Virus record (IMG/VR): IMGVR_UViG_3300045988_125651
Direction: 5' to 3' (one strand)
From: a virus
DNA: 64,000 nt
Shown: positions 82 to 44,898 of the stretch, in pieces
How the letters are laid out: each line of letters starts with the position of its first letter
How positions within the stretch are numbered: position 1 is the stretch's first letter
The notes under the pieces: model-generated
The model's input: only the letters and a program-made list of their open reading frames with translations
Told to the model about the DNA's origin: nothing
The model's database searches: none
Translations under genes and position numbers: made by a program

Positions 82-313
82 TTATGCTTTGTGTAAGCTG
101 CTGCTAATAAACGAGTTACACCGTAAACGCGTACGTAAACAAGTTTATTTCACAACCTTCGGGTACACCAGTGTTTATCAGCTTTCTCGCGAATTTGGAC
201 GCTTTTTCGATTTGCAAGTTCTACCCTCGTTCTACCGCCATCAAGAAGTGTATTACCAAATACGTGATTGTTTTCCCGAAACATTATAAACATTTTAAAA
301 CAATTTGTGTACT

Positions 314-25541: not shown

Positions 25542-25574
25542 ATAATTGTTTAACATTAAAAACATAAAAAAGAT

Positions 25575-26600: not shown

Positions 26601-26625
26601 ACATAAGCTATAACAAGTAAACAAA

Positions 26626-26655
26626 AGTGGTGGACCCTTTAGAAGGTTCACCACT
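26626..26655. terminator. Bidirectional terminator between convergent genes
   Basis: AGTGGTGGACC-ctttagaa-GGTTCACCACT, with an A-run before it and TTTTCTTTTC after it. Confidence 0.65.
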
Positions 26656-26666
26656 TTTTCTTTTCT

Positions 26667-29600
26667 TTATTCTATCCTATCCAAATCTTCTACAGCCTCC
26701 TGCATCTTTCTATTTATCGCCTCATTCACCGCCTCAACAACGGCCTTATCTTTAGCTCTTTTCAGAATCCTGCGCTTGGCAGCAATGTATCTATCAGCAG
26801 CCTCATATATCTTCAGCTTTCTTCCGTCCTTGCTCTGCGAGAGCTTGAACTTAGTTGCCGCATTATGAATATTCTTAGCAGTATCTGGTGTATTCGTCTT
26901 CATCTGCTGCATATTGTATTTCAGCCGTTCAAGTTCGTCAGCGTAGTTATACCACTTGGATTTAGTCCTCTGCATGTCATTACCCTCCTTCGGAGTATAG
27001 TTGAACACTCTATAGAATGGAATAGTATTCGGGTCTACTTTATCCCATTCCTTATTAAAGCCTTCTGCAAAGCCTTTATCATCCTTGATGCCCGACACGA
27101 CACCCTTCGCAAACGACTTGCCTGTTTGATACATTCTACCAATCGTGGCACCAGTTCCACCAGTATAACCCTCGACGATATGCTGCAATCCATAAGGAGC
27201 AGTAAAGAAGTCTACAGCATCAGCCATCATACCACTACCTTTCAAGTCCTCGTTCGTGCTGTCGATACCGTTGAAAGTCTTGTTAGCCCACTTATTGATG
27301 GTCATGTACACATCGTTCGTGCTGTCATAGGCGCGCTTCCATCTTGGAGCCTTGTCAAGATAATCTTTGTCACGGTATATTGGTCTGCCCGTCCAATCTC
27401 TGTTGAAAGCAAGTTCAAATTCTGGCTTCGCTATTGTCGGAATCACAGAGAGAGCAACATCTTCGCCCAACTCTTTTATTCCGCTCGATGGAGAATGATG
27501 TCCCAGGAAGTCTGAGGCAGGAACAAGCTGTGCCATCTGTCCGATAATGTCCCATCCTATTTGAACGTCACTCTTTAGGCTTTCGTCAACGACATACCCG
27601 GCTGCAATATCACCCAAGCCATAGAATGCTCTAAGCTCTATACCCATAGGTATAGTCTTGAACTTACCGCCTCCCCAATATATACATATATTATTGCGAC
27701 GTTTCCATTCTGGCAATTCCGCGTATGGATTCTTTACGCCATTGCGTTTTTTCTCGTCCTCTCTACCAATACGCCATAGATTGAATAATGCAACAGCAAG
27801 ACTCAGTCCAAAAGGCATTGCGCCAAAAGCAATCGCGGTTGTTTTTGTATTATTGTAAAGATTCTTGGCAAAAAGGTTTGCACCCTGCACACCTGCATTA
27901 TAGAACATAGTGTGATTCTTCATCCAACTGTTGAACCATCCTACAGGCTTTCTGAATGCAGTATCCGTCTTTCCATCATACCCTGTCTTCAAGCTCTTTA
28001 TTGCATCGCCCGAACCATGACGGTTGAAGTTTGAAGAAACCTCCTTAGCGTCATAGATACTCTTGCCTATGCTTCTACCGCGCTTTCTTGATACACAGTA
28101 AGTGGAGTAGCGAGCTACGTTTTCTACAACCTCATTCGCCAATTCGATGAACGCACCGCCTTCTTTCAGCTTTTTCATAAGCCATCGGTCGCCTTCTTTA
28201 TTTCCTGTCTTTACAAGGTTCTCATATTCTTTTATTATGTCCTCGTATTTCTTTAACGAAACAAAACCTGTCTCACCGCCATTGTCCATGAACTCCTTAA
28301 ACCAACGTTCTTTCTGATTGTTTGCATCCAAGCGTCCATCCTTGTAGCGTCTGAACATTCCAAGATAACCGCCATCAAAGCCGCCATCCTTTCGTCTTAC
28401 CATAGACCCCCAGTTTTTCGCATACTCCATGCAGAAGTCCCAAGTATAACCCATTCCTTCCTTTACCACCAAGTTTGCCGACCCAGCGGTCAGGTCTCGT
28501 ACAAGGTTTGAAGACACAAAGTCCGGATTAAGCGAAGTGTTCAACTGGGCGCAATATCTGTTCAGTTTTGCCGACTGTTCCGTTGCCCAATGTTGTGTGC
28601 CCGAGTCTCTGAGCAATCCATTAATAGCTTGTGCTGCTCTTGGGTTTCCCTGGCAAACAAATCTGCGCACTCTGCCGTTCACGTATACATTAACTATATG
28701 TTGGTTCATGTCGCTGCTGCGCTCAAACTTATAGCCAATGTCGCTTTTCCTTCTCGCTATCTTTGCCTCGCCATGAGCTTGCTTTGCCTTCATGGTGTCC
28801 TCAAAGGTGTTCAATATATCGTTGATCTGCTCTTGGGTTGAGTTTTCGGGAATGTTCGGCATTACTTCCTCCCATACCTCATTACCGTCAACGGTATGCT
28901 TCTCCACCCAAGGCTGAATCTCCACGAATATTCTATCCTTAGCGTCCCCCTTCTCATAGGCTTCCACAAAGCGCATGAAGTGTTGTTTCTCCACATTCTT
29001 GCCACCGTTCAATATGGACGATTTTGCCAAGGCTGATATTTGTGCCAATACGTTCACGTCACTAAGGCTCTCACGTCCTCTTGCCTTTTCAATCACAGAA
29101 CCTATGTAGTTCTTTGTGTCGCTACCCGATATGTAGCCGTACACATCTTCGGCAACTGTATCGTCGAATTTTCTTAATGGAACATACCAGTCGAACATTT
29201 CTTTCAAATGGTCTCTTCCGTTTTTATCCATGAATCCGTTGGCATACACTTGGTCTATAGTGAAGTCGGTAGCTTTCTTCTTGGCATCCCAAAAGCTCTT
29301 CACCAAGTCTGCCCCAAGCTGGCTTTCCGTGCTCATCACCTCGTCTATAACGTTGGCATCGTCATACTCCTCGCCTTTCTTCACGTCATAGATTCCGTGC
29401 ATACCCGAATAGTCATGCTCCTCAGCCTTGAAGTCCTTGTCCAAGTTCTGCACAATCCACTCGTCCATCTGACGATAATACTCTCTCAAGTCTATCTGTC
29501 CAGAGTCAAGCTTCTGTCTAAGGTCGCTTCTCTCGCCCTTCCAAGCAGTCTCCAAAGCATCAATACTATCGGATTCTTCACTCTTCACTTTTCGTTCTTC

Positions 29601-32600
29601 CCTTATCTTGTCTCTTACGAATAGTACTCTGTTTCTCTCCAAACCATGCTTCTTTATAAAGTATAGATTGGCGTTTCGTGTCTGCTCTGCTCCGTCCTTG
29701 CCGGGCATTGCCGACACCACTTTCTTGAAGGCGTCACCTAATGGCTCGGTGTATTCTCTGTCGTATCTCTCGCACATCTGCATAACCATACTGCCCATTC
29801 TGTTATGGCATTGCAATGGATTGAAGGCCGAAGGAATATCTGCATAAGCATCCTTCACACCCGAGATTATCTGCATGGCTTCCTGCAAAGACTGCATATC
29901 GTCCACGGTACTCTCCTTGAATGCGTACCATTTTGTGCTCAATCGTCTGTTGTATTCCTCAATTTTCGATGCTGTCATTGGCGAGGTTCTATAGTGTACA
30001 TGTCCGTCTGTAGCCTCGTCAAAATCTTTCTTGTTAAGGTCCAACAGCCCATGCTTCTTGCCGTTGTTGTCGTACATCATACCGTTCTCTTCTACAACGG
30101 ATAATGTCTTCTCATGCTCTATCTTCCACCTCACAGCCTCAGCTCTCATCTTCCACAGCGGACTGTCTCCATGCTTCTGCACGTTCTTCGCAAGCCACAG
30201 CATATACTTCACGTCCTTCACGTTAGGCGAAACTCTGTAGCCTATCTCATGCAGGGCATCTGTCACCTTATTCTTAATGTAGTTCCAGAATCCAGGCTCA
30301 CCCTTTCCGTCCTCTGCGCTCTTGGCGATAAACTCCTCAATAGCGTCATAGAATCCAAGGTGATTCATGTTCATCTTTTCCTTCACATAAGCTCTCAGCT
30401 CAGCATTGATAGGGTTATCCAAGTCCATCCAAAGACTTCTCATGTAGTCATTGAATTTATCTCCAAGCAGCCCTCTCATGCCCTTGTGTCCTACGGTCTC
30501 GTGCCATACGGTTTTCTCCGCGGTATACGAGTCATGGATATTAGGCATATACAGATGCACTTCGCCCGTCTTCTCGTCATACCAGCCAGTCACCTGCTTG
30601 CCGTTCTCTATGTCCTTGCGCACCTTCGGGTTCTCAATCTCCTCAACCGAGTTCACCATCTTCACCTTGCCTCCAGTTCTCTTGGCAACCTTCTCCACGG
30701 TCTTGATGATACGCTCGCTCACAGCATTCGAAGTCCCCGAAGTCTTCTCAGGTGTTACAACACCATCGCCTTCTTTTCTAAAGAAAGTCTCCCCATCTGT
30801 TAAATTTTTACTCTCATCAAGCAATTTTTTGCCCGAATCGTAGGATTTCTCAACTCCTTGCAGTAACTTTGCGGTTGAAATATAACCGTTGGTTGTACTG
30901 TTCAAAGGGAGACTGTCGGATTCGTTCGCTTTCTCGGAACCTTCCGACGTTATATTTTTAGAGTTGCTTGGTGTCGTGTCCAAAGGGGAACTGTCGGGTA
31001 ACACCGCTGTGCCAGGAGCGTCAGGCAGCTCTATCTTATTATCAATAGAGTTGTTTGATGCATCCGAAGGTGGTCTGTCGGGATTTTCTCGCTTTCCAGG
31101 GGAGTCAAGCAGCTCTATTTTTGTTACCTCATAGCTGTGAGGTTTGTTTTCTTCTCCTCCTCTGAACTCTTGCATAGTAGTCTTCACACGGTATATCTTA
31201 CCGTCCATCTCTACTGCGCCATAAAGTCTATGTACAAGGATATTGTTTCCATATCCAAGCTCGGCTTTTCTTTTTCCGGTTTCGTCCTTTACGTTATAAT
31301 CCGCGTGAATCTCAGCCTCGATGCTCTCATGGATAACATCTGTAAGTTTGGGAAGTACCGAAAGATGAATGTCAAGATTCTCACTTTTACGAACAGCACT
31401 TTCTGAAAGATATTTTTCAACAGCCCTTTTGCTGATTGTATAAGATGTACCATCGCGCATAATAGGCATTTCTGTCTTTCCCGTTGTTACAAGGTTTTCT
31501 TTTGCCCATTCTCTGGCATTTTTTAAAGAAGTTTCAATATTGTCACCAAAGGGAGATTTCTCAACCTCTACCACCTTCACCTTCTCCTTATTCAGATTAG
31601 GCATAACGATTCCTTTCTCCTCCACAGCTCTGTCTCTCACAGCGTCAAAGTGTTCCTTGCTGTCTGAGAAGGTATCGCCAAGCTCCATGCGGTAATGGGC
31701 ATTTGCCTTTCCATACACCTCTGCAGCATGCTCCATTCTGTACATCACACCCTTGCCATCGTTCTGTTTCTTCAAGTATCGTTGCATTTCCTCCTCGGTC
31801 ATGCCAGCCAACTTGCAAGTCAGTTTCTTTAGCTCCGCAATCACAGCCTGGCTTGTCTCGTCTCTCGTATAACGCTCATACTCCTCAAATCTCTCGTATG
31901 TACCCGAAAGAATACTCTTTCTCTGCTCAGCGTTATATTCACCCAAGTCAAACATAATAGAGTAATCGTTGCGGTCTCCTCTCACATGCACATTAATACC
32001 ATGCTCGTTCAAGTTCACCGTCACGTCTTTCAGTTCCTTCAAGTCCTTGGCTGTCTGCTTGCTCTTCTTCTGCATTATCGTATTGGTGTCGATAATGCGG
32101 TCAGGCATTTCTATATCGCGCAAATCCTCAAAGAAATCCTCTATCTTATCGTAGTGACCACCCAAGTTCACTTTCTCTACGCTGCCAGCCTTGGCTCGCA
32201 TAGCCTCGTTGCTTATCTTGTCCACTACTACCACACGGCATACTACATTGGTACCTGCCTGTTTGAACACGATGTCTGGCAACTCCACCTCGGCACGCAT
32301 TACGGCTGTCTTCTCACCATTAATCCACTTCTCAAACTTCTTGTCCGTTGAACCTCTCGGTATAATAGCTACCACACGACCGCCTTCCTCCAAGTGTTTG
32401 AATGCCTTACCCAAGTGGGCAATGGCTGTCGCTCCTGCCGTACCAAACGGTGGGTTCATTACTACAACATCATGCTTGTTGCTGATGTCGTAGTTCTCGA
32501 ATATGGTGTTCACGAACTTTCTACCCAGTCCACCTGCCTTCAACTGCAACTTGGCAAACAGACTCTGACTTGGTTCTATTGCCACCATCTGATTGCCCTT

Positions 32601-35600
32601 TGGAGCATATCGTGCTATCGCTCCATGTCCGGCACTCGGCTCCATTACGGTGTCACCCTCGCCCATGTTCGCCCATTCCATCATCTTATAGCCTAATGGT
32701 TCAGGTGTTGGGAAGTAGTCTACACCCTCTCTGTTGCGGGAGTTCAACTTCTGGTTCGAGTAGTAGTCAAGCACTGCATTGTCAAATCCGTCCGTGCTTT
32801 GGTCTTTAGGCGCGTCAAATTCCTTGCCTCCTACTCCTTGTTGATCGATAGGCACCACTCCGCTATGCTCCAATATACCGTTGGCGAAACTGTCTCTCAA
32901 ACTTCTTGCCTGACTTCCAAGCGCAAGGTTCTCAGTTGTCGATACCTGGTTGTTGAACTTCTGTCCGAACAGCATCATTTCTGAGTTCAGTCCCAATATC
33001 GGGTACTCAAATATGGCGTTGCTCTTGTTACCGATACGGTAGGTTCGTCCCTCTATCTGCAAGGCTGTGATAGGACTCTGAGGCAGAGCCAATGTTATGC
33101 ACACTCGCTGATGCTCGCCCGTCTTGTCATGCAGGGAGATTCCCTCCTTGCCGCTCGCCTCCTGTATCACGATGATGTTCTTGCCGCTGTTGTCGTCGTT
33201 GAAGATGTCCACAGCCTTGTCCTTCACCTTAGAGCTTTCCTTTCCGCTGAAGAACAGCACATTGTCCTTGCCGAACACCTTGGCTATCTGCTCACGAGGC
33301 ATACTGTAGTCAAGGGTCTGCTCCCACTTCAGCAAGTCGGCATACTTCTTTCTGAAATCTCTTACAGCCTGCGCAGCCTCCTTCTTATCCTTGCCTTCGC
33401 TCATTATCGAAACCAAGTGGTTGGCTTGCTCCAACATCAAGGCGAACGGCGGCTTCAATGGTTCCTTAGTCTCCACGCGACGATGGAATATCACAACCTT
33501 GCGTCCTGCATCCAAATGGGCCTTTATGCGCTCGATAATGTTAGCCACCTTCATAGTCTCAAACAGCGCGCTACCATAATTGTAGTCGCCAATCGTCCTG
33601 CGGTAAGCGTCTGCCAACACTCCGTGTCCTCTTACGGCATCCTGCACAGCTTGGTTGAACTGCTCCGCATGGTCGGGCGATACCGTCGGGAAGTCTCTTG
33701 AATAGTCATACGGACTGTCTATAATGCGTCCGCTCATGGTTCCCAACGTGTCTTGCAGATAGTCAGAGAAGGCTATCTCCTGCTTGGCTACTGCCTCTGG
33801 GTTGCTTGTGCTCTGCTCCAGTCTGTTGTAACGGAATTTGTATGCCGAACCAAAGTTGTCCAGATAGAACTGTGTGCGTCCGCTTATTCTTCCGCCCTTC
33901 TCTACTTCGGGATACTTGAAAATGTAACCCTCCACATAGTCAAGATTCTCGCGAGTGTTGAATGGTGTGGCCGAAAGGAAGATGGTCTTTGTGTCCTTCC
34001 ATTCAGCTTTTGCCTGTGCCTTAAGCTTTGGCTCCACAATGCTATTGTAGTGTCTTACGGCGTTTACATATTCAGCATGTATCTTGCCAAGCTTCGGGTA
34101 GTCGGCATATTCTCTAAAGCTTTGTATATCCTTCGGCAACATTCTTCTTATGGCATAGGCCACGTCACTTGCTGTTGCGCTCGGATGGCTCACCTTATAC
34201 TCTTTGCGTATACGCTCCACCTCCTTCTCGCGCTCAGCGTCAAACTGTTCGCCAAGACTCTTCATCTTCTGATAGTCCTTGTTCGTCTCCTGCAATCTCA
34301 GGAAGCAATGACGCTCGTCACGGTTCGTCACCATGTAGTGCTGTATACTGCGTGCCGTGTCCGCGCCCTTCTTGTTCTCCATGATACGGTGGCTCTCGTC
34401 GTATATCACAGCGTCCCAGTTCTCTTCCAACAGCTTCTTGTTCACTCCGAAGTTGGCGAATGTGGTGATCACCACGCCCTCGCCGCTTTCCGTCGTAGCC
34501 GTTGTGCCACGCTCCTTGGCTATGCTGTCAAGGTCGCGAATCTCCATGTTCAGGTTGCGTCCGTCCTTTATCCAGTCGCTCACCTTCTTCTGGCTCGGGG
34601 TCACAATGAGTATTCGTCCCTTGCCCTGCTTCACAAGTCGCTTGGCAATGCCAAGTCCCGTAAACGTCTTGCCCGTCCCCGTGCCATTGGTGAACATGTA
34701 GCCCTTGCCGTAGGCGTGCTCTCTGTCCGCGTGCTCATTGCCGAAGAACTGTGTCTCTGCTTTCAGCACGTCCTCCTGCTGTTGGGGCAGAAGATATGGT
34801 AGGGTTTCCTCGATATTCTTCTTGTCGCCTATCTTCACCTTGATAGGCTCGGCATCCATCTGTCTCTGATACTTATCGTTCAGAGGCTCTGAAAGCTTGT
34901 TTCTCAGCTCCTCGTTTCCGTGGATGCCTGCCCATTCGCCGATGGTATGGGTCTCACCGTCCATCTGGTAAGGAGTGTTCCAATAGTCTTCGATGAATCT
35001 GTCAACATCATCATCGCTGAGGCCTATCATCTTCAACTCCTCGCCTTCCTCGGCGCGCATAGCTGCCTTCCATTCGTTGAATTTGTAGATGCCTTCCTTT
35101 ATTTTCAGCACAGCTCCATTAAGGTGCATCTTGAACAACTCGGGGAGCATTTCTATCTGCTCGGGCGAAAGATTCAGCTTCTTGAAGGGAGTCAAGGCTA
35201 TCTTAACATATCCTTGCCCTGCCTTCTTCCATCTTTCCCAAAAGTCCTTTTTCTTCTGCTCGTATTCGGCGCGCTCCTGCTTTAGTCGCTCAGATGTACT
35301 ATTTGGGAAATGAGTTCCTTGCTTGGCTGCAGGCTTCCGTCCTGCATTCGGGTCAAGAGGTCCATTGCCGCCGCCTTGTCCTCCTCGCTTAGGTACATTT
35401 CCCTCATTGCCAGCTCCACCGCCTCCTCGGGTGTCAGTACTTCCGGCAGATACGGCATCCATTCCGGGTGTATTTCCTTCACCTTTGTCAACGCGCGGTT
35501 TTCCAGTAGATACAGGAGTGTCGTTCTCACCGCCCGTTCCGCTCTCTCGCTCTCCGGGTGTAGTTCGTTCGCTGTCTGTTCTATCCACTGGTCCATCAGG

Positions 35601-38600
35601 TCCTCCGCCTTTTCGTCCTCGTCCCAATCCCAATTCTTGGCTGCCTCCAGTATTGGGAACATCCAGCTGTGTTCCGTCTTTTGTTCCGCTATTATCGGGA
35701 ACATTCTCATGTCTACTTCTAACATCGTTCCAAATTTTAAAGTAAGAAATTGCGTTAATTATATTGCCCTTGTCGCCACGCAAGTATGCGAGTGCGGCAG
35801 GTATCAACTCTCTGTTCTCCTTAGAAGTCAGCTCGTTTATCTCTGTTTCCGTAAGAGGATTCTTCGACGACACGGCTTCTCGTTCCTCCAAGTCCATCTG
35901 TTCCCAAGGCTTGTTTACCTTCTCGGCTTCTGCCTTGCCTACTTCCTTGCCAAGAATCTTTCCTAACTCTCGACCGATAATTCTGCGTCGCTCCACTAAG
36001 CCGATACCGTTTCCTCTCAGCTTAGTTTCCATCGCCTGTTTCATCTTCTCTGTAGCACGCTTAATATCAGAAGCGTCGCCGCTCTCCTTGGCAGCAGTCA
36101 GTTCCTTACGCGCCTTCTGTATCTGCTCGTCCTTGAACATTTCTGCAGTATGCGCCAACCAAGCCAACGGATTTGTCTTTGGGGGTTCCTCACCCTCAAC
36201 CTTAGTATCGGATTTTTCACTTTTCTCTTTTCCCTTTTCACTCTTCAAGGGGTTCGCTCCCTTAGCCCAGTCTGCCAGCACCTTGTCTGCCACATCGCTA
36301 CCCCTAATCTCACCCTCAGTCAAAGGATGGTCTTTCTTGTAGTTCTCCGCAGCTTTCACTATCGGATTAAGCGTATTCTCTTCTTTCTTAGGAAGGATTG
36401 AAAGCGGTTCTTTATTCAGTTCTTCTTTTTCTGTATATTCGTTGTATCTCTCGCCTTCCTCTATTACGGATTTAATAATACGTGCCGCATCTGCCACATT
36501 ATCCAATGTAATTTGTGGCAGCTTTGCAATAGGGTCGTTTTCTTTAATCTGGCTTATATTACGGTAGTCATTATCCAATGCCTTCAACTGGGCATACCAA
36601 GGGCTGTTCTTGTCGGCATATATCCAGCCGTCTCCGTTTTCACCGTAAGAAAGATGGACTCCTTCAAGTCCTGCATCTTTCAATGCAGAATCTAAGGCAC
36701 TCTCGATAGTCTTAATAACTTCCGTTAAAGGTTTTATGAGTGCCTTATTAACATTATAGCTTTTATCGTTTTTCTTTGTATTCTTACAAATTGACAAATA
36801 AGACGAAAGATAGCCATGGCCAAGTGGGCTCGCAAGGATAGCTTCCACCAAATCTTTCTGTGCGTTCTTTATACGCTTCTTATCGCCACTCTCAACGGCT
36901 TCTTTCAAAGCCTTAGCAACAGGCGAAACCTGTTTCAAACCTTGGTCGCGAGACTCTATGTAAGCCTTGAATTTATTTTGAGGCGCAAGGTCTCCTTCTA
37001 TTTCTTTCGTTCTTGGAAGTTCACCTTCTCTTTCCTCTCCCTTCGGCTTAGTCGGCTCCACAGGCTCCACAGGCTCAGTAAGGGCCAGTGAGGCCTCGTG
37101 AGGCTTATCACTTTTCTCTTCCTCAGCCTTGTCTACTTCTCGCTGTCCTTCTGTTGGTTCGTCTCCTCCTGGTGCTTGCGGTTCAGTTCCCTCAGAGCTG
37201 CCAGCATCGCCATTTCCTTCTTTGCTTGAATGTCTTGTTTCATAGTCTTTCCAGTTTCTAAGTTTCAAAAATTCCTTTATAAACTCTTCATTCGTAGGTC
37301 TCTCGCCGAACATTTCCATCTGGTTGGCATCTGCATAAGGAGCAGCATTTCTGTTATACGCCATCATCAGCTCACGGAAGTCCTCAGCCTTACCCTCCAG
37401 AGCAAGAGCAATAGCCTGCGAGATAGGGTCAAATCTGTCAGCTGCGTTCTCGCCAAACATAGCAGGAGTGCGCAAGTATGCGTCCACACCGCTTCCGCCT
37501 TGACGAGCTTCGTACAGCAACTGCACTGCCTGGTCTATCTCCTTCATCAGAGCATAGTCGCCAAGTTTCATATTGTCCGTCACAGCACGGATGCCGTTCA
37601 GAGCCTTGGTTTTCAGCATAGCGTCAGCGCCCATCATGCGGATGGTGTTCTCCGAGAACACACTGCCCAATAGCAGGTTCTTCACGAAGTCCTTGCCTGC
37701 TGCCGAAAGCTTGTCCTCGCCCTCACGCAATCCCGCTATCTCGTTCAGACCAATCACGCCCTTATCAATTAAACGCTTTAGCAACGAGTTTATTGCAGTA
37801 GGATTGTTAAAGAATGCGTCAAGACTACCGCTTCCCTCTATCTCTGATATAATAGTGCCTATCTCGTCTGCAGAAAGCTTCTTCGAGTTCGCCACTGCCT
37901 GCTGAGTATTGCCCTGCGATTTCTTCTCGTTCTTGTTGAACTTGGCAAAGGTTGCCGTGTCATACTTCATCGGCTCGTCACTCACAAGCACAAGGCGCGG
38001 ATGCTTTATACCACTCTGCTCAATCTGCTCTGCGGTGAAGCCGTAATTCTCTGCATTCTCCTTCAATGCTTCAAGATAAGCACTGTCGGTACCGTTCTTT
38101 GCTGCCTTCTGTCCCGCCATCGTTCTGCCGTTACCGTCAACAACAATGCCGTCAGATGTCACAACCGGAACCTGGTCTACTGCCTGTCCGTCATACTTCA
38201 TGGCTATCATATCCGTTACCATCTGAGCCTGCTTGTCATTCTCATAGTCACGGTCATTGATAGTCCTGCCTTCTTCGTTCACGGGGAAACCCTCACTCTT
38301 CTTATATCCGTCGTTGGCATTATGCGAAGGTGTCAGACTGTCTGCTTCAACAATCTCATAGTGTCCTCTTAGCTTGCTTCCGTCAGCCAATGTACGTGTA
38401 CGCTTGTTGCCCACAATACGCTTACCGCTTTCAAACTTCTCACGAACAGCGCCTAAATTACCTGCTTCACTTACCGAACCTTCTTCACCTACACTACCTA
38501 CCTTCTCCATTCCAGCCTTAACCTTATTCGCGGTCATTACCTTCTTGATATTGGTATATAGCTCCAGCTCTGCTTTGGCGGCATCAACTGCCTTCGCCTT

Positions 38601-41600
38601 CTGAGCCTCAGCTTCCTTGGCGTCGTTCAAGTCGCCCGTGTAATCCACCTTTATCATTTCGGCTTCCTTCAGCATTTTCTCGGCTCTCTTTATCTGTCCG
38701 TCTACAGCAGCTTCTGCGTTCTCGCCAAACTGCGAAGACATCCACTCCGCTCCATGTTCGGGTGTCATCTGCGAGTAGTCAGCAGTCTCACGGCCTTTCG
38801 TGTCCTTCATCATCGGCACAGGTGAGCCATCGGCAAATGTTAAAGTCTCGTTACTTCCATTGCCATTATCGGATGGATTCTTTTTTTCTCCTTCCCCTAT
38901 AGGCTTTACATCTTCAACTCCAGGCGCCGACGCGCCCTCCTTCGGTGTTACAACACTCTCAGTCTTAGTATCGGATTCTTCACTTTTCTCTTTTCCCTTT
39001 TCACTTTCAGCGTAAGCCCCTGAGTTCAACTCCTCCAACTTCGTTTGATAGGCCTTGGCATAGTCCTCCGTCTTTTCCACATGGTCAAGCTGCACGTCCT
39101 TCTTGCTCACGAAGTCCATCTCCTTTGTATTCGGGTCAAGCACGCTAAGCATGTCGCCAACGCTTTCTCTCGCTCTACCCTCATTATCAAAGGCAACATC
39201 GCCCGCTCCAACAATAAGCAGTCTGCCATTGTTGTCCTTCACGAACAACATCTGGCCGCCCTCTTGCTTCTCACCGTTCAGCCCGCCCTTGTAGCTCCAT
39301 TGCTCCACATGCTTCTGCACGGTCTCAGCAATCTTCTGTTCAGTTCCGCGATACATGCCCACAGCCTTAGCCTTGGTGTTGATATAGTCGGCAAAAGGTA
39401 CAAGCTGTTCCTGCGTCAGTCCCGAGTTTATCAGCTCCATGTATATCTGAGGTTCCGAGAGACCTTCCTTTGTTAGTCTCTCATACTCCTGCTTCAACAC
39501 ATCGTTACTTTCCAAGGCTGCATTAAACGCCTTTTCGGCATTATTCATGTTGTTCAGCACCTCAGCCACAGCCTCGTTGTTAGGATTCTCCGTGCCAAGG
39601 TTATTTTCCTCAACCACGTCCTTGCCCTCTGTCTGCGACTGGTCGGGATGCAACGTTCCTTCCGGGAACTGCTCTCCCTCATAAGCCTTTCTCAGAGCCA
39701 CGCAAGCGTTCTGTTCTTCCTCGCTGCGCTTCAACGGGTCTTTGTCCATAGCTGCCTTCAACTGTTCAGCAGTAAAGCCAAACGTCTCAGCTACAGTCTC
39801 CAATGTTTCTTGTGCCGCCTTCTCGTCCTTTATCTGAGCTGCGCCATAGGCATTACTCAAACGTTGGTTTTCCTTTTTCGCCCCAAGATTGTATTTGATT
39901 GAAACGTATTCGTCGGCTGTCTTATAGCGGTTCTTTGAGAGCAACTCTCCATAAAGGCTATACTCACCCACATACGCTCCTCTTTCGTCACGCTCTATCG
40001 CTATATGGTCCATCATCGGACGTGCCGAAGGAACAGTTCCCATAACCAAAGCAGAGAACTTAGCCTTTGTGTCCCAAGGGATAGTTTCATCTGCCATTAT
40101 CTCGTCATAGGCAGTCTTCACAAACTCAGTGTCTGTGTCCTTATACGACTCCTCGCCTTTCCCTTTGGCTGCGGTCTTCTTAGTTCGCATCGCCCAAGAT
40201 GTCAGACTCTCTTTTCTCGTCAGCGGATTGTCGTGTACGTCATATCCGTAGAGCGTCTCTTCGCGCTTTGGCGCCTTGTCGCTTCCGAACAGCTGCTCTT
40301 TCTCCTCATTGGTAAAAACATATCCACCAAAGGTCGCTCTCTGTCCGTCAGATGTCATAAGGTTTTTAATATTTCTCGCCACCATATCAAGGTAGCCTTC
40401 CTTTTTGCCATCATTCACCTGACGCTTAGGCAGTCTTGCGTGTGTCAGCTTCAAGGCTACAACATTGGCACAAGCCTCAAGTGTGCCTTCAACGCTCCAG
40501 AAGTCGGTATCATGTCCCTCTATCATCTTGGCGACATTGCCACCGACGTGCATACCCCAACCTTCCATCGCTATTTGGAACACCTTGGCAGGGATGCGCT
40601 TCACGCCACTTACATTATAGATTCCTGCACCTACAGCACCGCCAATGCCACCCATAGTAGCCCAGCTTGCGCCCTCAGAAAGACCGCCCATAGTCATAAG
40701 CTTCACGGTATTGCCAATAGAGGTATCATCACCCGTTGAGTAATTCTGAACAGCAGCATTCGTCGAACCATAAAGCACACCCGTTACACCTTGACTTACG
40801 GCTCCAGTACCAACCATTCGACCTATGCGCCCTGCAAGACTCGTGTTAGCAATCCTTGCTGCCTGTGCCACACCATTGCCGAAAGCCTTGCCTGCGACCC
40901 ATGCACCGCCCTTGCCAAGCACACCAAATACTGGGCCATCAGCACCAAAGCCTAATGTGCCTCGTGCCACTCTCGCTCCCATACCCGGCTTAACATAAGG
41001 ATTTTCCCCGTTATCGGTCATAGCCATTCCTTGCTGAGCATACTGTCTCTGCTTCTTCGACATCATACCCATCGACAAGATAGTGCCTATCATCGAGTCG
41101 TTGACACCACGGATGATATATTCTGCCGTACTCTTAGGCATATTACGGCTCAATTCGCTCTTCTCAAACTCCTCAGCTATCTTTGCTTGCAAGCCAGGAG
41201 CTATATAATTCTTTACATAATCCTCTGGGTCGATACCTAACGAAGCTGCCTTTTCTGCTATTTCCTTCTGCATCTTCGGGTCGGAGAACAACCCAGCCAT
41301 GTCTTTCTCGGCATTCTTGCTGAGCTGATTCATTAGCTTGTCAGGATCAAGGGCTTCATTGTAAGCCTTACCTGCTGCCATATATGCAAATGGAGAGGCC
41401 TTGCTCAAAGCATCTTCTGCTGCAACACCTTTAACTGTCGCATCCTTAAACATCTTTTGGATACTATTGTTTATATATCCGCCAAGCTGTTTGTCAACAA
41501 GCTGTCTGCTGCTTTCTTCCAACTCATCCTCCAACTGCCCCCTTGTCTTCACAATATTGTTGTTCACGTCCTCGTTCCCAAGGTCAAAGGCTGGAGCATT

Positions 41601-42206
41601 CCTTCGTCTTATCTCACCCTCAGCATTTCTACCAGCCTCTTGTCCAGCCTGTTCCATTCTACGCTCCAGTGACTTCTGTGCTCTTCTCACACCGCCTACC
41701 ATCTGTTTTACAGCACCCGGCTTTGTATAGTCTATAGGCATCTGCTCCTCGTCGCGCTTTCTAATCATATCAGCAGCGCGCAAGCCCTTCACTAGCTCGC
41801 TTTCCTTACCCGTAGTGCCACCGTTCCAATCATCCAATGTCACAGCATTCCTCTTCGGTGCTGAAACATTCTCAGATGTCGTAGTGTTCTCATGTGTTAC
41901 AACACCACCGCCCCACTTCTCTTGCGCCACACTCTGTTGCGCGCGTCCAAGTGCCGAGCTATTGGGTTTCCCCTTTCCTCTTGTTATCGTTCTTCCCGTA
42001 AACAGATGAGCACCAAAGTCACCAACACGACTCGCATCCTTTACGCTCACATCGCCTCTTCGCCCTGTCTTTCGGTCTATTACCTCCATTCGAGCACCAG
42101 GGAATGCTTTTGCAAATCCCATCGGGTCCTTGTCATACGCTGTCTTGTCTACCGTATGCCTGTTACCTTTCGCATCCTTGAAATAATAATATCTATTGTC
42201 TGCCAT
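26667..42206 (-). CDS. Giant multi-domain polyvalent protein (5,179 aa)
   Basis: A single uninterrupted ORF. It contains ParB-like, SF2 helicase, N6-adenine-type methyltransferase and HExxH motifs, plus Gly-rich and TM segments (listed as sub-features below). Confidence 0.85.
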   Translation of the reverse strand: MADNRYYYFKDAKGNRHTVDKTAYDKDPMGFAKAFPGARMEVIDRKTGRRGDVSVKDASRVGDFGAHLFTGRTITRGKGKPNSSALGRAQQSVAQEKWGGGVVTHENTTTSENVSAPKRNAVTLDDWNGGTTGKESELVKGLRAADMIRKRDEEQMPIDYTKPGAVKQMVGGVRRAQKSLERRMEQAGQEAGRNAEGEIRRRNAPAFDLGNEDVNNNIVKTRGQLEDELEESSRQLVDKQLGGYINNSIQKMFKDATVKGVAAEDALSKASPFAYMAAGKAYNEALDPDKLMNQLSKNAEKDMAGLFSDPKMQKEIAEKAASLGIDPEDYVKNYIAPGLQAKIAEEFEKSELSRNMPKSTAEYIIRGVNDSMIGTILSMGMMSKKQRQYAQQGMAMTDNGENPYVKPGMGARVARGTLGFGADGPVFGVLGKGGAWVAGKAFGNGVAQAARIANTSLAGRIGRMVGTGAVSQGVTGVLYGSTNAAVQNYSTGDDTSIGNTVKLMTMGGLSEGASWATMGGIGGAVGAGIYNVSGVKRIPAKVFQIAMEGWGMHVGGNVAKMIEGHDTDFWSVEGTLEACANVVALKLTHARLPKRQVNDGKKEGYLDMVARNIKNLMTSDGQRATFGGYVFTNEEKEQLFGSDKAPKREETLYGYDVHDNPLTRKESLTSWAMRTKKTAAKGKGEESYKDTDTEFVKTAYDEIMADETIPWDTKAKFSALVMGTVPSARPMMDHIAIERDERGAYVGEYSLYGELLSKNRYKTADEYVSIKYNLGAKKENQRLSNAYGAAQIKDEKAAQETLETVAETFGFTAEQLKAAMDKDPLKRSEEEQNACVALRKAYEGEQFPEGTLHPDQSQTEGKDVVEENNLGTENPNNEAVAEVLNNMNNAEKAFNAALESNDVLKQEYERLTKEGLSEPQIYMELINSGLTQEQLVPFADYINTKAKAVGMYRGTEQKIAETVQKHVEQWSYKGGLNGEKQEGGQMLFVKDNNGRLLIVGAGDVAFDNEGRARESVGDMLSVLDPNTKEMDFVSKKDVQLDHVEKTEDYAKAYQTKLEELNSGAYAESEKGKEKSEESDTKTESVVTPKEGASAPGVEDVKPIGEGEKKNPSDNGNGSNETLTFADGSPVPMMKDTKGRETADYSQMTPEHGAEWMSSQFGENAEAAVDGQIKRAEKMLKEAEMIKVDYTGDLNDAKEAEAQKAKAVDAAKAELELYTNIKKVMTANKVKAGMEKVGSVGEEGSVSEAGNLGAVREKFESGKRIVGNKRTRTLADGSKLRGHYEIVEADSLTPSHNANDGYKKSEGFPVNEEGRTINDRDYENDKQAQMVTDMIAMKYDGQAVDQVPVVTSDGIVVDGNGRTMAGQKAAKNGTDSAYLEALKENAENYGFTAEQIEQSGIKHPRLVLVSDEPMKYDTATFAKFNKNEKKSQGNTQQAVANSKKLSADEIGTIISEIEGSGSLDAFFNNPTAINSLLKRLIDKGVIGLNEIAGLREGEDKLSAAGKDFVKNLLLGSVFSENTIRMMGADAMLKTKALNGIRAVTDNMKLGDYALMKEIDQAVQLLYEARQGGSGVDAYLRTPAMFGENAADRFDPISQAIALALEGKAEDFRELMMAYNRNAAPYADANQMEMFGERPTNEEFIKEFLKLRNWKDYETRHSSKEGNGDAGSSEGTEPQAPGGDEPTEGQREVDKAEEEKSDKPHEASLALTEPVEPVEPTKPKGEEREGELPRTKEIEGDLAPQNKFKAYIESRDQGLKQVSPVAKALKEAVESGDKKRIKNAQKDLVEAILASPLGHGYLSSYLSICKNTKKNDKSYNVNKALIKPLTEVIKTIESALDSALKDAGLEGVHLSYGENGDGWIYADKNSPWYAQLKALDNDYRNISQIKENDPIAKLPQITLDNVADAARIIKSVIEEGERYNEYTEKEELNKEPLSILPKKEENTLNPIVKAAENYKKDHPLTEGEIRGSDVADKVLADWAKGANPLKSEKGKEKSEKSDTKVEGEEPPKTNPLAWLAHTAEMFKDEQIQKARKELTAAKESGDASDIKRATEKMKQAMETKLRGNGIGLVERRRIIGRELGKILGKEVGKAEAEKVNKPWEQMDLEEREAVSSKNPLTETEINELTSKENRELIPAALAYLRGDKGNIINAISYFKIWNDVRSRHENVPDNSGTKDGTQLDVPNTGGSQELGLGRGRKGGGPDGPVDRTDSERTTPGERESGTGGENDTPVSTGKPRVDKGEGNTPGMDAVSAGSTDTRGGGGAGNEGNVPKRGGQGGGNGPLDPNAGRKPAAKQGTHFPNSTSERLKQERAEYEQKKKDFWERWKKAGQGYVKIALTPFKKLNLSPEQIEMLPELFKMHLNGAVLKIKEGIYKFNEWKAAMRAEEGEELKMIGLSDDDVDRFIEDYWNTPYQMDGETHTIGEWAGIHGNEELRNKLSEPLNDKYQRQMDAEPIKVKIGDKKNIEETLPYLLPQQQEDVLKAETQFFGNEHADREHAYGKGYMFTNGTGTGKTFTGLGIAKRLVKQGKGRILIVTPSQKKVSDWIKDGRNLNMEIRDLDSIAKERGTTATTESGEGVVITTFANFGVNKKLLEENWDAVIYDESHRIMENKKGADTARSIQHYMVTNRDERHCFLRLQETNKDYQKMKSLGEQFDAEREKEVERIRKEYKVSHPSATASDVAYAIRRMLPKDIQSFREYADYPKLGKIHAEYVNAVRHYNSIVEPKLKAQAKAEWKDTKTIFLSATPFNTRENLDYVEGYIFKYPEVEKGGRISGRTQFYLDNFGSAYKFRYNRLEQSTSNPEAVAKQEIAFSDYLQDTLGTMSGRIIDSPYDYSRDFPTVSPDHAEQFNQAVQDAVRGHGVLADAYRRTIGDYNYGSALFETMKVANIIERIKAHLDAGRKVVIFHRRVETKEPLKPPFALMLEQANHLVSIMSEGKDKKEAAQAVRDFRKKYADLLKWEQTLDYSMPREQIAKVFGKDNVLFFSGKESSKVKDKAVDIFNDDNSGKNIIVIQEASGKEGISLHDKTGEHQRVCITLALPQSPITALQIEGRTYRIGNKSNAIFEYPILGLNSEMMLFGQKFNNQVSTTENLALGSQARSLRDSFANGILEHSGVVPIDQQGVGGKEFDAPKDQSTDGFDNAVLDYYSNQKLNSRNREGVDYFPTPEPLGYKMMEWANMGEGDTVMEPSAGHGAIARYAPKGNQMVAIEPSQSLFAKLQLKAGGLGRKFVNTIFENYDISNKHDVVVMNPPFGTAGATAIAHLGKAFKHLEEGGRVVAIIPRGSTDKKFEKWINGEKTAVMRAEVELPDIVFKQAGTNVVCRVVVVDKISNEAMRAKAGSVEKVNLGGHYDKIEDFFEDLRDIEMPDRIIDTNTIMQKKSKQTAKDLKELKDVTVNLNEHGINVHVRGDRNDYSIMFDLGEYNAEQRKSILSGTYERFEEYERYTRDETSQAVIAELKKLTCKLAGMTEEEMQRYLKKQNDGKGVMYRMEHAAEVYGKANAHYRMELGDTFSDSKEHFDAVRDRAVEEKGIVMPNLNKEKVKVVEVEKSPFGDNIETSLKNAREWAKENLVTTGKTEMPIMRDGTSYTISKRAVEKYLSESAVRKSENLDIHLSVLPKLTDVIHESIEAEIHADYNVKDETGKRKAELGYGNNILVHRLYGAVEMDGKIYRVKTTMQEFRGGEENKPHSYEVTKIELLDSPGKRENPDRPPSDASNNSIDNKIELPDAPGTAVLPDSSPLDTTPSNSKNITSEGSEKANESDSLPLNSTTNGYISTAKLLQGVEKSYDSGKKLLDESKNLTDGETFFRKEGDGVVTPEKTSGTSNAVSERIIKTVEKVAKRTGGKVKMVNSVEEIENPKVRKDIENGKQVTGWYDEKTGEVHLYMPNIHDSYTAEKTVWHETVGHKGMRGLLGDKFNDYMRSLWMDLDNPINAELRAYVKEKMNMNHLGFYDAIEEFIAKSAEDGKGEPGFWNYIKNKVTDALHEIGYRVSPNVKDVKYMLWLAKNVQKHGDSPLWKMRAEAVRWKIEHEKTLSVVEENGMMYDNNGKKHGLLDLNKKDFDEATDGHVHYRTSPMTASKIEEYNRRLSTKWYAFKESTVDDMQSLQEAMQIISGVKDAYADIPSAFNPLQCHNRMGSMVMQMCERYDREYTEPLGDAFKKVVSAMPGKDGAEQTRNANLYFIKKHGLERNRVLFVRDKIREERKVKSEESDSIDALETAWKGERSDLRQKLDSGQIDLREYYRQMDEWIVQNLDKDFKAEEHDYSGMHGIYDVKKGEEYDDANVIDEVMSTESQLGADLVKSFWDAKKKATDFTIDQVYANGFMDKNGRDHLKEMFDWYVPLRKFDDTVAEDVYGYISGSDTKNYIGSVIEKARGRESLSDVNVLAQISALAKSSILNGGKNVEKQHFMRFVEAYEKGDAKDRIFVEIQPWVEKHTVDGNEVWEEVMPNIPENSTQEQINDILNTFEDTMKAKQAHGEAKIARRKSDIGYKFERSSDMNQHIVNVYVNGRVRRFVCQGNPRAAQAINGLLRDSGTQHWATEQSAKLNRYCAQLNTSLNPDFVSSNLVRDLTAGSANLVVKEGMGYTWDFCMEYAKNWGSMVRRKDGGFDGGYLGMFRRYKDGRLDANNQKERWFKEFMDNGGETGFVSLKKYEDIIKEYENLVKTGNKEGDRWLMKKLKEGGAFIELANEVVENVARYSTYCVSRKRGRSIGKSIYDAKEVSSNFNRHGSGDAIKSLKTGYDGKTDTAFRKPVGWFNSWMKNHTMFYNAGVQGANLFAKNLYNNTKTTAIAFGAMPFGLSLAVALFNLWRIGREDEKKRNGVKNPYAELPEWKRRNNICIYWGGGKFKTIPMGIELRAFYGLGDIAAGYVVDESLKSDVQIGWDIIGQMAQLVPASDFLGHHSPSSGIKELGEDVALSVIPTIAKPEFELAFNRDWTGRPIYRDKDYLDKAPRWKRAYDSTNDVYMTINKWANKTFNGIDSTNEDLKGSGMMADAVDFFTAPYGLQHIVEGYTGGTGATIGRMYQTGKSFAKGVVSGIKDDKGFAEGFNKEWDKVDPNTIPFYRVFNYTPKEGNDMQRTKSKWYNYADELERLKYNMQQMKTNTPDTAKNIHNAATKFKLSQSKDGRKLKIYEAADRYIAAKRRILKRAKDKAVVEAVNEAINRKMQEAVEDLDRIE
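27770..27845 (-). other. TM helix in the C-terminal part of the giant protein
   Basis: TTAIAFGAMPFGLSLAVALFNLWRIG. Confidence 0.6.
30486..30503 (-). other. Zincin HExxH motif of the giant protein
   Basis: WHETVGHKG (codons CAC GAG ACC GTA GGA CAC). Confidence 0.55.
32215..32725 (-). other. N6-adenine-type DNA methyltransferase domain of the giant protein
   Basis: VMEPSAGHGAI (SAM-binding motif I) and VVMNPPFG (motif IV; NPPF codons at 32445-32456). Confidence 0.75.
32990..34760 (-). other. SF2 (SNF2/DExH-like) helicase domain of the giant protein
   Basis: FTNGTGTGKTFTG (Walker A), VIYDESHRI (DExH) and QIEGRTYRIGN (motif VI). Confidence 0.75.
35282..35725 (-). CDS. Candidate overlapping gene in the +1 frame of the giant ORF (147 aa)
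   Basis: ATG-initiated ORF with a globular-looking acidic helical translation. It overlaps a Gly/Arg/Asp-rich linker of the host frame. The local T-poor composition could also explain the open frame. Confidence 0.3.
   Translation of the reverse strand: MLEVDMRMFPIIAEQKTEHSWMFPILEAAKNWDWDEDEKAEDLMDQWIEQTANELHPESERAERAVRTTLLYLLENRALTKVKEIHPEWMPYLPEVLTPEEAVELAMREMYLSEEDKAAAMDLLTRMQDGSLQPSKELISQIVHLSD
36201..36243. repeat. Copy A of a 42-bp direct repeat inside the giant ORF
   Basis: CTTAGTATCGGATTTTTCACTTTTCTCTTTTCCCTTTTCACT. It encodes SEKGKEKSEKSDTK. Confidence 0.85.
37985..38375 (-). other. ParB/Srx-like nuclease-fold segment of the giant protein
   Basis: GHYEIVEADSLTPSHNANDG ... VVDGNGRTMAG resembles the ParB DGxxR core. 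Confidence 0.5.
38964..39005. repeat. Copy B of the 42-bp direct repeat inside the giant ORF
   Basis: Identical to copy A except for one T/C difference. It lies 2,763 bp (921 codons) from copy A. Confidence 0.85.
40600..40990 (-). other. Gly-rich hydrophobic (glycine-zipper-like) segment of the giant protein
   Basis: GFGADGPVFGVLGKGGAWVAGKAFGNG ... MGGIGGAVGAGIYNVSG. Confidence 0.5.
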
Positions 42207-43680: not shown

Positions 43681-44149
43681 AATCCTCCACGTTTTTCTTC
43701 AACAAGTCAAACGCCTGACCAAGGGTATTGACAAACTTCTCTGCCTTTTCCCTACGCTTGTACTGAAATTCTATCTCCTTGTTCAGTACAGCAATCACCT
43801 CGCACTTCTCTGACATGCGCTTAGCGTTCTTCTTCTTTATCCTCTCTATCACCTTGTCCTTATACGCCAAAGCATTCTCGGCCGACTTCAAGCAAGCGGC
43901 AAGATTGTCACGCTCGGCACACAAGCCGTCAAAATGCGCAGCAAGGCTCTTATAATCCTCTTGAAGTTTCTCCAACGCCAAGTGATAACGCTCTGCAAGC
44001 TCCTCATTCATCTTCAACGACTTCTCCAATATCTTTATCTTCTTTGCTTGCTCGTCAACAACAGAATCCTTCAACAAACCCGCAGCCTCCATCACACGAT
44101 CAACGTCTACACCTTTCTTCGCGTTTATATCAATCTTTTTCTTTCCCAT
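43658..44149 (-). CDS. Coiled-coil protein
   Basis: 163 aa with heptad-rich sequence, in the same operon. Confidence 0.4.
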   Translation of the reverse strand: MGKKKIDINAKKGVDVDRVMEAAGLLKDSVVDEQAKKIKILEKSLKMNEELAERYHLALEKLQEDYKSLAAHFDGLCAERDNLAACLKSAENALAYKDKVIERIKKKNAKRMSEKCEVIAVLNKEIEFQYKRREKAEKFVNTLGQAFDLLKKNVEDYEHSIGR

Positions 44150-44869: not shown

Positions 44870-44898
44870 ATCTACTGTATTTTTTAATAACCATAACT

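Follow-up and report, generated by a model that had tools for sequence, protein, structure and literature searches.

What kind of protein is encoded by an open reading frame (ORF) that alone fills about a quarter of a viral sequence, and which parts of it would serve the virion and which the infected cell? The question is raised by the 64,000-nucleotide (nt) IMG/VR record IMGVR_UViG_3300045988_125651 (this whole stretch is called the window below), in which one minus-strand ORF at 26667..42206 runs from the ATG at 42206 to the stop codon at 26667 and encodes a predicted protein of 5,179 amino acids (aa), hereafter the giant. Judged by its domain content, the giant belongs to the phage-type polyvalent proteins as defined by Iyer et al. 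(J Bacteriol 2017), because its ddrB-ParB, LPD3 and LPD38 domains all scored above the Pfam cut-offs; the class had already been proposed in an initial annotation made from the sequence alone. We consider it probable that the giant is a two-part protein of the LPD38 class, in which a packaging and ejection chassis is joined to an exchangeable anti-restriction cargo.

The ORF list and the translation gave 5,179 codons, or 24.3% of the window, in agreement with the single uninterrupted minus-strand ORF of about 24% described initially; the next longest ORF in the window has 887 aa, and those overlapping the giant in other frames reach at most 349 aa. Uninterrupted homologues of 4,821–5,882 aa were found in 17 related contigs from other assemblies, comprising a European Nucleotide Archive contig (L001; 4,821 aa, 59–73% identity over three aligned blocks) and 16 IMG/VR contigs (4,860–5,882 aa). 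Since 17 independent related assemblies hold it without interruption, the ORF is not an accident of assembly. That the giant is an assembly chimera, or a decaying pseudogene still open by chance, is extremely improbable: beyond the single in-frame stop of L012 at 10247–10249, which splits the ORF into 2,698 and 2,655 codons, nothing was found that speaks for it, and it is opposed by the 17 assemblies, by 80 genome loci whose upstream frame is open, mostly over the full 10 kb fetched, and by homologues of 5,391 and 5,553 aa in cultured phages. It is opposed also by the low ratio of nonsynonymous to synonymous substitution (dN/dS), computed in 400-codon windows and reported wherever dS could be estimated. 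Windows with an estimable dS gave 0.08–0.36. Against the relative L013 the ratio was 0.08–0.29 in all windows, domain-free stretches included, and against L019 it was 0.08–0.53 per window, with the last window saturated at synonymous sites. Purifying selection thus acts along the giant ORF. A sequencing error or a recent nonsense mutation could explain the stop in L012, as could a two-gene version that occurs naturally, and in L021 the homologue ends at the contig edge. No DNA nearly identical to the giant region was found among GenBank phages.

Five unrelated domains were recognized in this one ORF, namely a ParB domain, a superfamily 2 (SF2) helicase, a methyltransferase, LPD3 and LPD38. The first lies in a P1 DdrB-like module at aa 1274–1640 (37287..38387), where the Pfam family ddrB-ParB (PF18763) matched aa 1275–1397 (E 8e-15, 55.5 bits vs a cut-off of 27.6), and where a ParB/Srx-like segment had been annotated at aa ~1280–1405. 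In BLASTP, aa 1274–1640 matched aa 35–397 of P1 DdrB (E 1.2e-9), and on this similarity we take the module to be a true homologue of P1 DdrB. The SF2 helicase or translocase occupies aa 2489–3070 (32997..34742; annotated as aa ~2480–3070), with ResIII (E 9e-12) and DEAD at aa 2489–2625 and Helicase_C at aa 2980–3059, all above the Pfam cut-offs, a Walker A motif (GTGTGKT) at aa 2508, and DESH and QIEGRTYR readable in the translation. Because SNF2-rel, AAA_34 and Helicase_C_4 (Strawberry-notch) fell slightly under their cut-offs in this region, an SNF2- or Strawberry-notch-like subfamily is only suggested. The following domain, at aa ~3156–3335 (32202..32741), is a predicted gamma-class N6-adenine DNA methyltransferase, as annotated for aa ~3160–3330. 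It matched PHROG DNA-methyltransferase families at 2.7e-28, 8e-19 and 3e-9, and the Pfam MTS profile reached 18 bits, under its cut-off. Its motifs follow one another as FPTP, EPSAGHG and NPPF (the last at aa 3251), which reads as the gamma-class N6-adenine order; a capping 'TP' motif has been described for the methylases of polyvalent proteins (Iyer et al., J Bacteriol 2017). Of the domains named initially, ParB and helicase were thus confirmed in Pfam and the methyltransferase in PHROG, and LPD3 (PF18798; E 1.9e-8 to 1.8e-9, 34.9–38.2 bits vs a cut-off of 27) was located in addition at aa 3561–3685 (31152..31526).

Helicase-then-methyltransferase is itself a travelling cassette. At 36% identity over 96% of its length, the unit of the two matched a section of a larger protein (3,292 aa) in Vibrio phage 1.232.O, and it aligned end to end with PHROG families 10691 and 5143. 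At the other end of the protein, aa ~408–535 (40602..40985) form a Gly-rich, mildly hydrophobic segment: over aa ~400–560 Gly makes up 20% of the residues and the mean Kyte-Doolittle value is +0.1, compared with about −0.8 elsewhere in the giant. Its position (aa ~350–600) is kept in 24 representatives of the giant family, down to 24% identity. The Gly-zipper-like character annotated here therefore holds as to composition and conservation and not as to the strict GxxxGxxxG pattern, which is absent, small-xxx-small patterns being present. Pfam gave no match in the first 600 aa at E≤5, and matches to two other unassigned stretches were at chance level. Searches of PDB chain sequences with the N-terminal 2,483 aa and the middle 1,535 aa likewise returned chance-level matches only, and the NCBIfam scan of the giant yielded a trivial match in the Walker region.

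The last part of the giant begins with a candidate zincin-like metallopeptidase domain at aa ~3831–4030 (30117..30716). Its motif, WHETVGH, has the form HExxxH, and its residues H3902, E3903 and H3907, together with E3958 and E3965 downstream, are invariant in 31 homologues. One set of peptidases in polyvalent proteins is known to carry HEXXXH (Iyer et al., J Bacteriol 2017). A hidden Markov model (HMM) of the domain matched aa 1507–1663 of 933W p72, where the motif is HEIIH (E 4e-10). In the AlphaFold model of aa 3830–4330 (mean predicted local distance difference test score, pLDDT, 74), the domain consists of a helix, three strands and a long helix that bears the motif, with pLDDT ~70–85. 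A peptidase assignment is plausible but unproven. It is followed by a conserved, mostly helical module at aa ~4031–5179 (26670..30116), defined by LPD38 and by profiles, which contains LPD38 (PF18857) at aa 4826–5033 (27108–27731; E 7.6e-29, 101.6 bits vs a cut-off of 27) and, at aa 4789–4811 (27774–27842), a hydrophobic helix that is the sole strongly hydrophobic segment of the giant and keeps its character in Bacteroidales relatives. The model of aa 4300–5179 was mostly helical at moderate confidence (pLDDT 66; predicted template modelling score, pTM, 0.47), and Foldseek matched it to many viral LPD38 models in BFVD, the best at E 5e-33. Some of the matched proteins bear annotations for a lytic transglycosylase, a RelA/SpoT or a methylase domain, and such different enzyme annotations point to varied cargo on one chassis.

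The same division emerged from an exhaustive HMMER scan of cluster representatives with aa 3980–5179, which recovered 3,539 representatives at E≤1e-3 and 936 at E≤1e-30. Among the best 150 of the 3,539, the module ends within ~300 residues of the C-terminus, usually far fewer, and 110 proteins have at least 3,000 aa, the longest 6,927 aa. All of these 110 giants share query aa ~4100–4700 and most share aa ~3850–5100, whereas the N-terminal region or the helicase-methyltransferase block is common to only about one third of them, and the ParB module is likewise present in only about one third. By these alignments, the last ~1,300 residues are the constant part of the family and the N-terminal part is the variable one. 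The initial annotation had called the size and domain combination unusual for a temperate phage of this size, which is not borne out by 110 of the 150 best representatives having at least 3,000 aa or by the 64–65-kb Bacteroides phages with homologues of 5,391 and 5,553 aa. The giant is instead an ordinary member of a large and already described family, with a size and an architecture normal for its lineage. The find itself is accordingly not new, as the class has been known since 2017, later work found some members to be essential or virion-associated, and a homologue in a cultured Bacteroides phage has been annotated. What the comparison adds is a separation of the constant module, probably concerned with packaging or ejection, from the cargo, which tells which part to delete in tests of infectivity and which in tests of anti-restriction.

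Evidence on what such a protein does comes from phages of the 933W type. The C-terminal module matched 933W p72 (2,806 aa) over roughly its last 1,300–1,450 residues (hmmsearch, E 1e-136), a match that takes in the HExx(x)H domain and LPD38, and the giants of the 933W/GP4/Bcep22-like podoviruses (933W, Sp5, phi24B and JC1) have in common with the present one a homologous LPD38-bearing module at the extreme C-terminus, a gene that is the last and largest of a late unit, following genes for proteins of 400–510 aa and ~80–245 aa, and a share of 20–27% of the phage genome (22% in JC1). They differ in that the hosts of those phages are Pseudomonadota, whereas the host phylum here is taken to be Bacteroidota, and in that only the C-terminal module is common to p72 and the present giant, the N-terminal cargo being different. 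In the Shiga toxin 2 phage Sp5, the counterpart ORF80 (2,793 aa) is essential, and its deletion abolishes infectivity and gives DNA-filled heads that bind no tail-fibre antibody (PMC5155283). The phi24B protein gp47 (2,811 aa), with LPD5, LPD1, LPD38 and a MuF-C peptidase, is abundant in virion proteomics and absent from the cryo-electron microscopy map, and the study proposes that it is encapsidated and serves ejection (bioRxiv 10.64898/2026.04.10.717836). In the Burkholderia podovirus JC1, gp69 is a 4,515-aa 'DarB-like antirestriction protein' with lytic transglycosylase, methylase, HepA helicase and LPD38 domains that takes up 22% of the genome, and 51 unique peptides of it were detected by mass spectrometry of CsCl-purified virions (PMC9144972). 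The giant differs from gp69, with its lytic transglycosylase and its methyltransferase-to-helicase order, in having the helicase first and in its DdrB-like ParB module and LPD3. By extension from these homologues, the giant would be packaged and may be essential. The earlier proposal of a co-injected virion or ejection effector is thus in line with homologues that are virion-associated (phi24B gp47, JC1 gp69) or essential (Sp5 ORF80), from which it is carried over.

We therefore propose, with the giant read as chassis plus cargo, that the last ~1,300 residues (the HExxxH domain, the helical domain with its hydrophobic helix, and LPD38) would load the protein into the capsid during assembly and, once the short-tailed virion opens, would contribute to the ejection apparatus. 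Exchangeable cargo would make up the first ~3,800 residues, comprising the Gly-rich region, the DdrB-like ParB, the translocase-methyltransferase and LPD3, the modules being joined by linkers rich in Lys, Glu, Ser and Thr. This cargo may enter the cell along with the leading DNA, where the translocase-methyltransferase and ParB could act on the incoming genome ahead of the host restriction systems, in a manner analogous to P1 Dar, although P1 packages the components in its capsid as separate proteins. It is the chemistry of the domains, together with the P1 precedent, that suggests anti-restriction action, ejection and processing here.

A different account would make the giant chiefly a structural or ejection component, a trans-envelope conduit or a tail-assembly factor, whose enzymes serve genome delivery: a translocase to pull the DNA in, a ParB module to hold its end, and a peptidase to cut peptidoglycan or to mature the virion. 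In its favor, Sp5 cannot do without ORF80 and fails to complete its tail when the protein is lost, the authors of the phi24B study proposed a transperiplasmic conduit and suggested that the metallopeptidase degrades peptidoglycan (bioRxiv 10.64898/2026.04.10.717836), a lytic transglycosylase domain, as in T7 gp16, occurs in some members of the family, and the first gene of the giant's own transcription unit shows a weak T7_gp14 match. The arrangement recalls gp14-gp15-gp16 of T7, and N4, in that a short-tailed phage has genes of rising size for internal or ejected proteins with the largest last, whereas homology to T7 gp14, T7 gp16 or the N4 virion RNA polymerase (vRNAP) was not detected. We nevertheless consider this account unlikely, as an N6-adenine methyltransferase has no obvious role in translocation. 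The helicase-methyltransferase and ParB modules are present in only about one third of giants and therefore cannot be needed for core delivery, and 933W p72 lacks them, yet its Sp5 homologue is essential.

Several results weigh against the chassis-and-cargo reading that we favor. The virion evidence comes from phi24B gp47 and JC1 gp69, neither of them a close relative, and the Sp5 phenotype, in which tail-fibre antibody does not bind, could mean a defect of tail assembly and not of ejection. No relative of the C-terminal module was found in the PDB by sequence profile or by fold, all matches being at chance level; against T7 gp16 hhalign gave a probability of 0.8%, and against N4 vRNAP (gp50) hmmsearch with three profiles gave E 4 each. 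The tile holding HExxxH had no Pfam match even at E 5, and Foldseek of the domain model against the PDB returned nothing below E 0.9. The zincin motif of the initial annotation consequently stands as a conserved H-E-H, but it is HExxxH and not HExxH, a pattern that occurs nowhere in the giant, and its fold was confirmed neither by Pfam nor by Foldseek. Similarly, the 'membrane-spanning' C-terminal part does contain one hydrophobic helix, but 933W p72 has no counterpart of aa 4789–4811. The family of the 224-aa protein encoded upstream gave an hhalign probability of 0.2% against T7 gp14 itself. Finally, P1 DarB is only marginally similar in sequence and has its domains in the opposite order; the case for anti-restriction draws on analogy and not on a demonstrated homology of function. 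Among candidates that were tried, the C-terminal encapsidation region of N4 vRNAP was rejected as a homologue of the module at E 4. Across both AlphaFold models, Foldseek found nothing in the PDB below E 0.4, and a match to the 'cyanophage A4 pre-ejectosome' is meaningless at E 5.6.

The giant might also remain outside the capsid, as a late-expressed cytoplasmic complex for the methylation or processing of progeny DNA before or during packaging, so that its place among the structural genes would be incidental. A methyltransferase and a translocase could indeed act on replicating phage DNA, and the virion evidence comes from other phages; two homologues with the LPD38 module were, however, found in purified virions, the module is phage-restricted and always lies beside portal or structural genes, and a stand-alone enzyme would need no conserved C-terminal module of 1,300 residues. 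We regard this possibility as very unlikely, and packaging of the giant, with delivery of its cargo, continues to be the reading that we prefer.

How far the cargo can be compared with the Dar system of P1 was considered separately, as the initial annotation had assigned to the giant the architecture of P1 DarB. The co-occurrence of methyltransferase and helicase does hold, and the likeness extends to the combination of the same enzyme classes and to a DdrB-type ParB with a His-Glu-His motif downstream. In P1, however, DarB (2,255 aa, methyltransferase and helicase) and DdrB (995 aa, ParB and metallopeptidase) are separate proteins of a myovirus without the LPD38 module, and in DarB the methyltransferase (aa 20–184) precedes the helicase (aa ~857–1520), whereas here the helicase comes first. 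BLASTP of the giant against DarB gave E 0.002 in the methyltransferase and E 0.005 in part of the helicase C-domain (DarB aa 1463–1523), phmmer gave 0.0085, and P1 was not recovered by tblastn at 1e-5. LPD36, found at the N-terminus of P1 DarB (Iyer et al.), was not detected in the giant by Pfam. With the order reversed and the similarity this marginal, the assigned architecture was not upheld; 'DarB-like' would be fair as a functional analogy and incorrect as a statement of family membership. The giant fits the polyvalent class at large in its many effector domains, the methylase-SNF2 pairing, the HEXXXH variant and the phage late-gene context, and DdrB-ParB and LPD38 are phage-only domains of that class (Iyer et al., J Bacteriol 2017). 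Nothing categorical separates it from the class, its helicase-then-methyltransferase order being the reverse of the usual one, in which LPD36 comes before the methylase and the helicase 'nearly always' lies C-terminal to both (Iyer et al., J Bacteriol 2017).

If cargo is exchangeable, traces of exchange may be expected along the ORF. BLASTP alignments with relatives broke into blocks at aa ~84, ~1073, ~1756–1990 and ~3501–3815, with jumps in identity from one block to the next: the first two blocks of L019 are 87% and 89% identical to the giant and the C-terminal block 51%, and those of L005 are 81%, 80% and 93% identical. Between blocks, dS ranges from about 0.1 to more than 1.5. The breaks coincide with linkers that repeat one another. 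A 66-nt direct DNA repeat, with copies at 38940..39005 (aa ~1068–1090, SEKGKEKSEESDTKTESVVTPKEG) and 36177..36242 (aa ~1989–2010, SEKGKEKSEKSDTKVEG), is 85% identical and encodes SEKGKEKSE(E/K)SDTK at aa 1070 and 1991. A second direct repeat of 46 nt, 78% identical, joins 30725..30770 (aa ~3812–3828, GDGVVTPEKTSGTSNAV), at the N-terminal edge of the C-terminal module, to 41867–41912 (aa ~99–113). The motif VVT[PH] occurs at aa 102, 1085 and 3816, its copies at aa 102 and 3816 lying inside the 46-nt repeat. A breakpoint falls at query positions 1971–1990 in most relatives and at 3815 in L005, L009, L015 and L019, and the linker motifs are found at corresponding breakpoints in nine close relatives and are absent from more distant ones.

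We read the linkers as putative recombination junctions between modules, which is a small new point of this analysis and gives something concrete to test about the rebuilding, and perhaps the processing, of such proteins. That they are also cleavage sites of the HExxxH peptidase is speculative. A reading that joins both ideas, in which the C-terminal ~1,300 residues would be the loading and ejection chassis and the Lys/Glu/Ser/Thr-rich linkers (SEKGKEKSExSDTK...VVTPK and GxGVVT[HP]E) would provide both the short homologies for swapping whole anti-defence cargo modules and the sites at which the peptidase divides the giant into separate effectors after delivery, is put forward tentatively and is in our view doubtful as a whole. 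If it were true, the family would be a natural plug-and-play system for protein injection, abundant in the Bacteroidales phages of the human gut.

The nearest cultured relatives are the Bacteroides temperate phages BS-TP4, BKO1-TP3 and BF1-TP2 (PMC12694917), whose portals are 34–38% identical to that of the window. BKO1-TP3 gp55 (5,553 aa, annotated 'DarB-like antirestriction') and BS-TP4 gp3 (5,391 aa) have a C-terminal module 26% identical to that of the giant and matched its profile at E 1e-247 to 1e-262. Also shared are the ParB module, an upstream protein of ~370–390 aa, a small gp14-like protein, a temperate lifestyle and genomes of 64–68 kb. On the other hand, BLASTP could not align the middle of their giants, where the helicase region is either lacking or different, and the methyltransferase is present in BS-TP4 only. 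Moreover, in those phages the giant gene is immediately followed by the portal gene, with no change of strand, whereas a ten-gene cluster on the opposite strand lies between the two here. The giant proteins are left undiscussed in the paper on the three phages (Gut Microbes 2025, PMC12694917).

As to genomic setting, the giant is the last gene of a four-gene late unit, as had been stated initially; the four genes lie on one strand with tight junctions (gaps of 45 and 31 nt and one 23-nt overlap), and the unit is flanked by terminator-like hairpins. Upstream, such a hairpin is found at 45864–45832 (minus strand), and downstream, a consensus scan found at 26623..26658 a 14-bp hairpin with a flanking A-run and T-run, a candidate bidirectional terminator that sits between the stop codon of the giant and the convergent gene 25575..26600. 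The other genes, all on the minus strand, encode a 224-aa protein with a Gly-rich N-terminus, possibly T7 gp14-like (44195..44869, the first gene), a 163-aa protein kept in close relatives (43658..44149, the second) and a 480-aa protein directly upstream of the giant (42238..43680, the third). The last of these is a conserved partner, its homologues being directly upstream of the giant in all close relatives. It had no Pfam or PHROG match, and hhalign related it to the 371–420-aa upstream proteins of the Bacteroides phages (89% probability, E 2e-6). The 163-aa protein showed weak matches only, to TMP_3 (E 0.001, far below the cut-off) and to phrog_6550. The 224-aa protein matched Pfam T7_gp14 below threshold (E 9e-5, 22.9 bits vs a cut-off of 27, 157 of 187 profile positions), as did eight of the 11 members of its family, all eight of them close relatives, and jackhmmer linked it to BKO1-TP3 gp57 and BS-TP4 gp1.

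In the 933W-type phages the genes upstream match the neighbors of the giant in position and size, without detectable similarity (JC1 gp68, Sp5 ORF79). BLASTP and hhalign found no similarity between the three upstream proteins and 933W p68, p69 and p71. Sp5 ORF79, directly upstream of ORF80, is likewise essential (PMC5155283), and JC1 gp67 (196 aa) and gp68 (510 aa), upstream of gp69, are also virion-associated (PMC9144972). With the sub-threshold T7_gp14 match and the weak TMP_3 match as the only signals and a negative hhalign comparison with T7, the initial description of the upstream genes as internal-virion or ejection proteins was not supported.

In front of the unit, 44900–44985 holds two tandem 43-nt copies (72% identical), 31 nt upstream of the start codon at 44869 and within a stretch of ~1 kb without any minus-strand ORF of at least 80 aa. 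This repeat may be a regulatory element; it had no Rfam match and no Bacteroides-type promoter consensus. That consensus was not found near 44870–45900 and occurred four times in the window vs 1.7 expected, the sigma-70 scan was at chance level, and Rfam and tRNA scans of the window were empty. A diversity-generating retroelement was considered, as related Bacteroides phages have them, and no template/variable repeat pair was found in the repeat scan.

The phage is temperate, because it carries an integrase gene at 305..1453 (plus strand; phrog_1, E 2e-36) and its relatives lie within megabase-scale chromosomal contigs. Its host is probably a member of the Prevotellaceae, as the closest genome matches are Segatella and Leyella and one source is named 'Prevotella sp.'. 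Near the integrase, and on the strand opposite to its neighbors, an HNH endonuclease gene was noted at 4472–5410 (minus strand; phrog_59, E 5e-51). The portal of the window matched phrog_156 at 6e-58, and P22_portal was found in relatives. An 887-aa protein encoded at 9561–12224 (minus strand), away from the giant's operon, matched phrog_32516 over its full length (E 6e-88) and, weakly, the 'internal virion protein' family phrog_511 (E 2e-4), and may be a second candidate ejection or tail protein. The module of portal, 712-aa and 887-aa genes shares the strand of the giant, and the ten-gene plus-strand cluster at 18927–26600 lies between the two. In L001 and L003 the portal module has the opposite orientation to the giant, and no more than two small ORFs intervene; compared with L001, L003, L102 and L104, the structural region 9561–26600 is rearranged around the giant gene.

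Beyond viral records, a scan of one genome per species gave 96 confirmed matches, from which 80 loci were kept, nearly all of them in Bacteroidales, including Segatella copri, Leyella stercorea, Phocaeicola massiliensis DSM 17679, Bacteroides congonensis and B. neonati. All 80 encode the module, and most stay open for at least 4,400 codons or over the whole 10 kb fetched upstream. These counts show how common such giants are in the prophages of gut Bacteroidales, and anti-defence cargo, if co-injected, would matter for the prediction of host range and for the engineering of phages against Bacteroides and Prevotella. Among plasmids, only seven of 72,556 records matched, all seven non-mobilizable, and an origin from conjugative elements was rejected on the genomic context and on this near absence.

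Seven loci (L026, L034, L042, L054, L072, L080 and L086) bear non-Bacteroidota titles (Faecalibacterium, Agathobaculum, Staphylococcus sp., Lachnobacterium); they are mostly metagenome-assembled genomes or binned isolates and could reflect either mis-binning or true spread. The core of the module also matched ~100 Vibrio phages, 20 Ralstonia phages and ~180 Shiga toxin (Stx)/E. coli phages, as well as the Methanosarcina virus MetMV (MK170447.1, 40633–42333; 24% identity over 53% of the query, E 1e-20), which suggests that the module crosses the divide between bacteria and archaea. In a public gene catalogue, only the final 2,008 of the 4,821 aa of the giant at L001:1562–16027 are called, the other 8.4 kb being filled with three genes of 36, 152 and 248 aa, one of which runs antisense and the other two on the strand of the ORF. 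Most matches in that catalogue are fragments of 1,000–2,300 aa, some ending at contig edges, and such fragmentary calls indicate that giant polyvalent genes are under-called there; the library clustered at 50% contains full-length giants of 5,000–6,900 aa.

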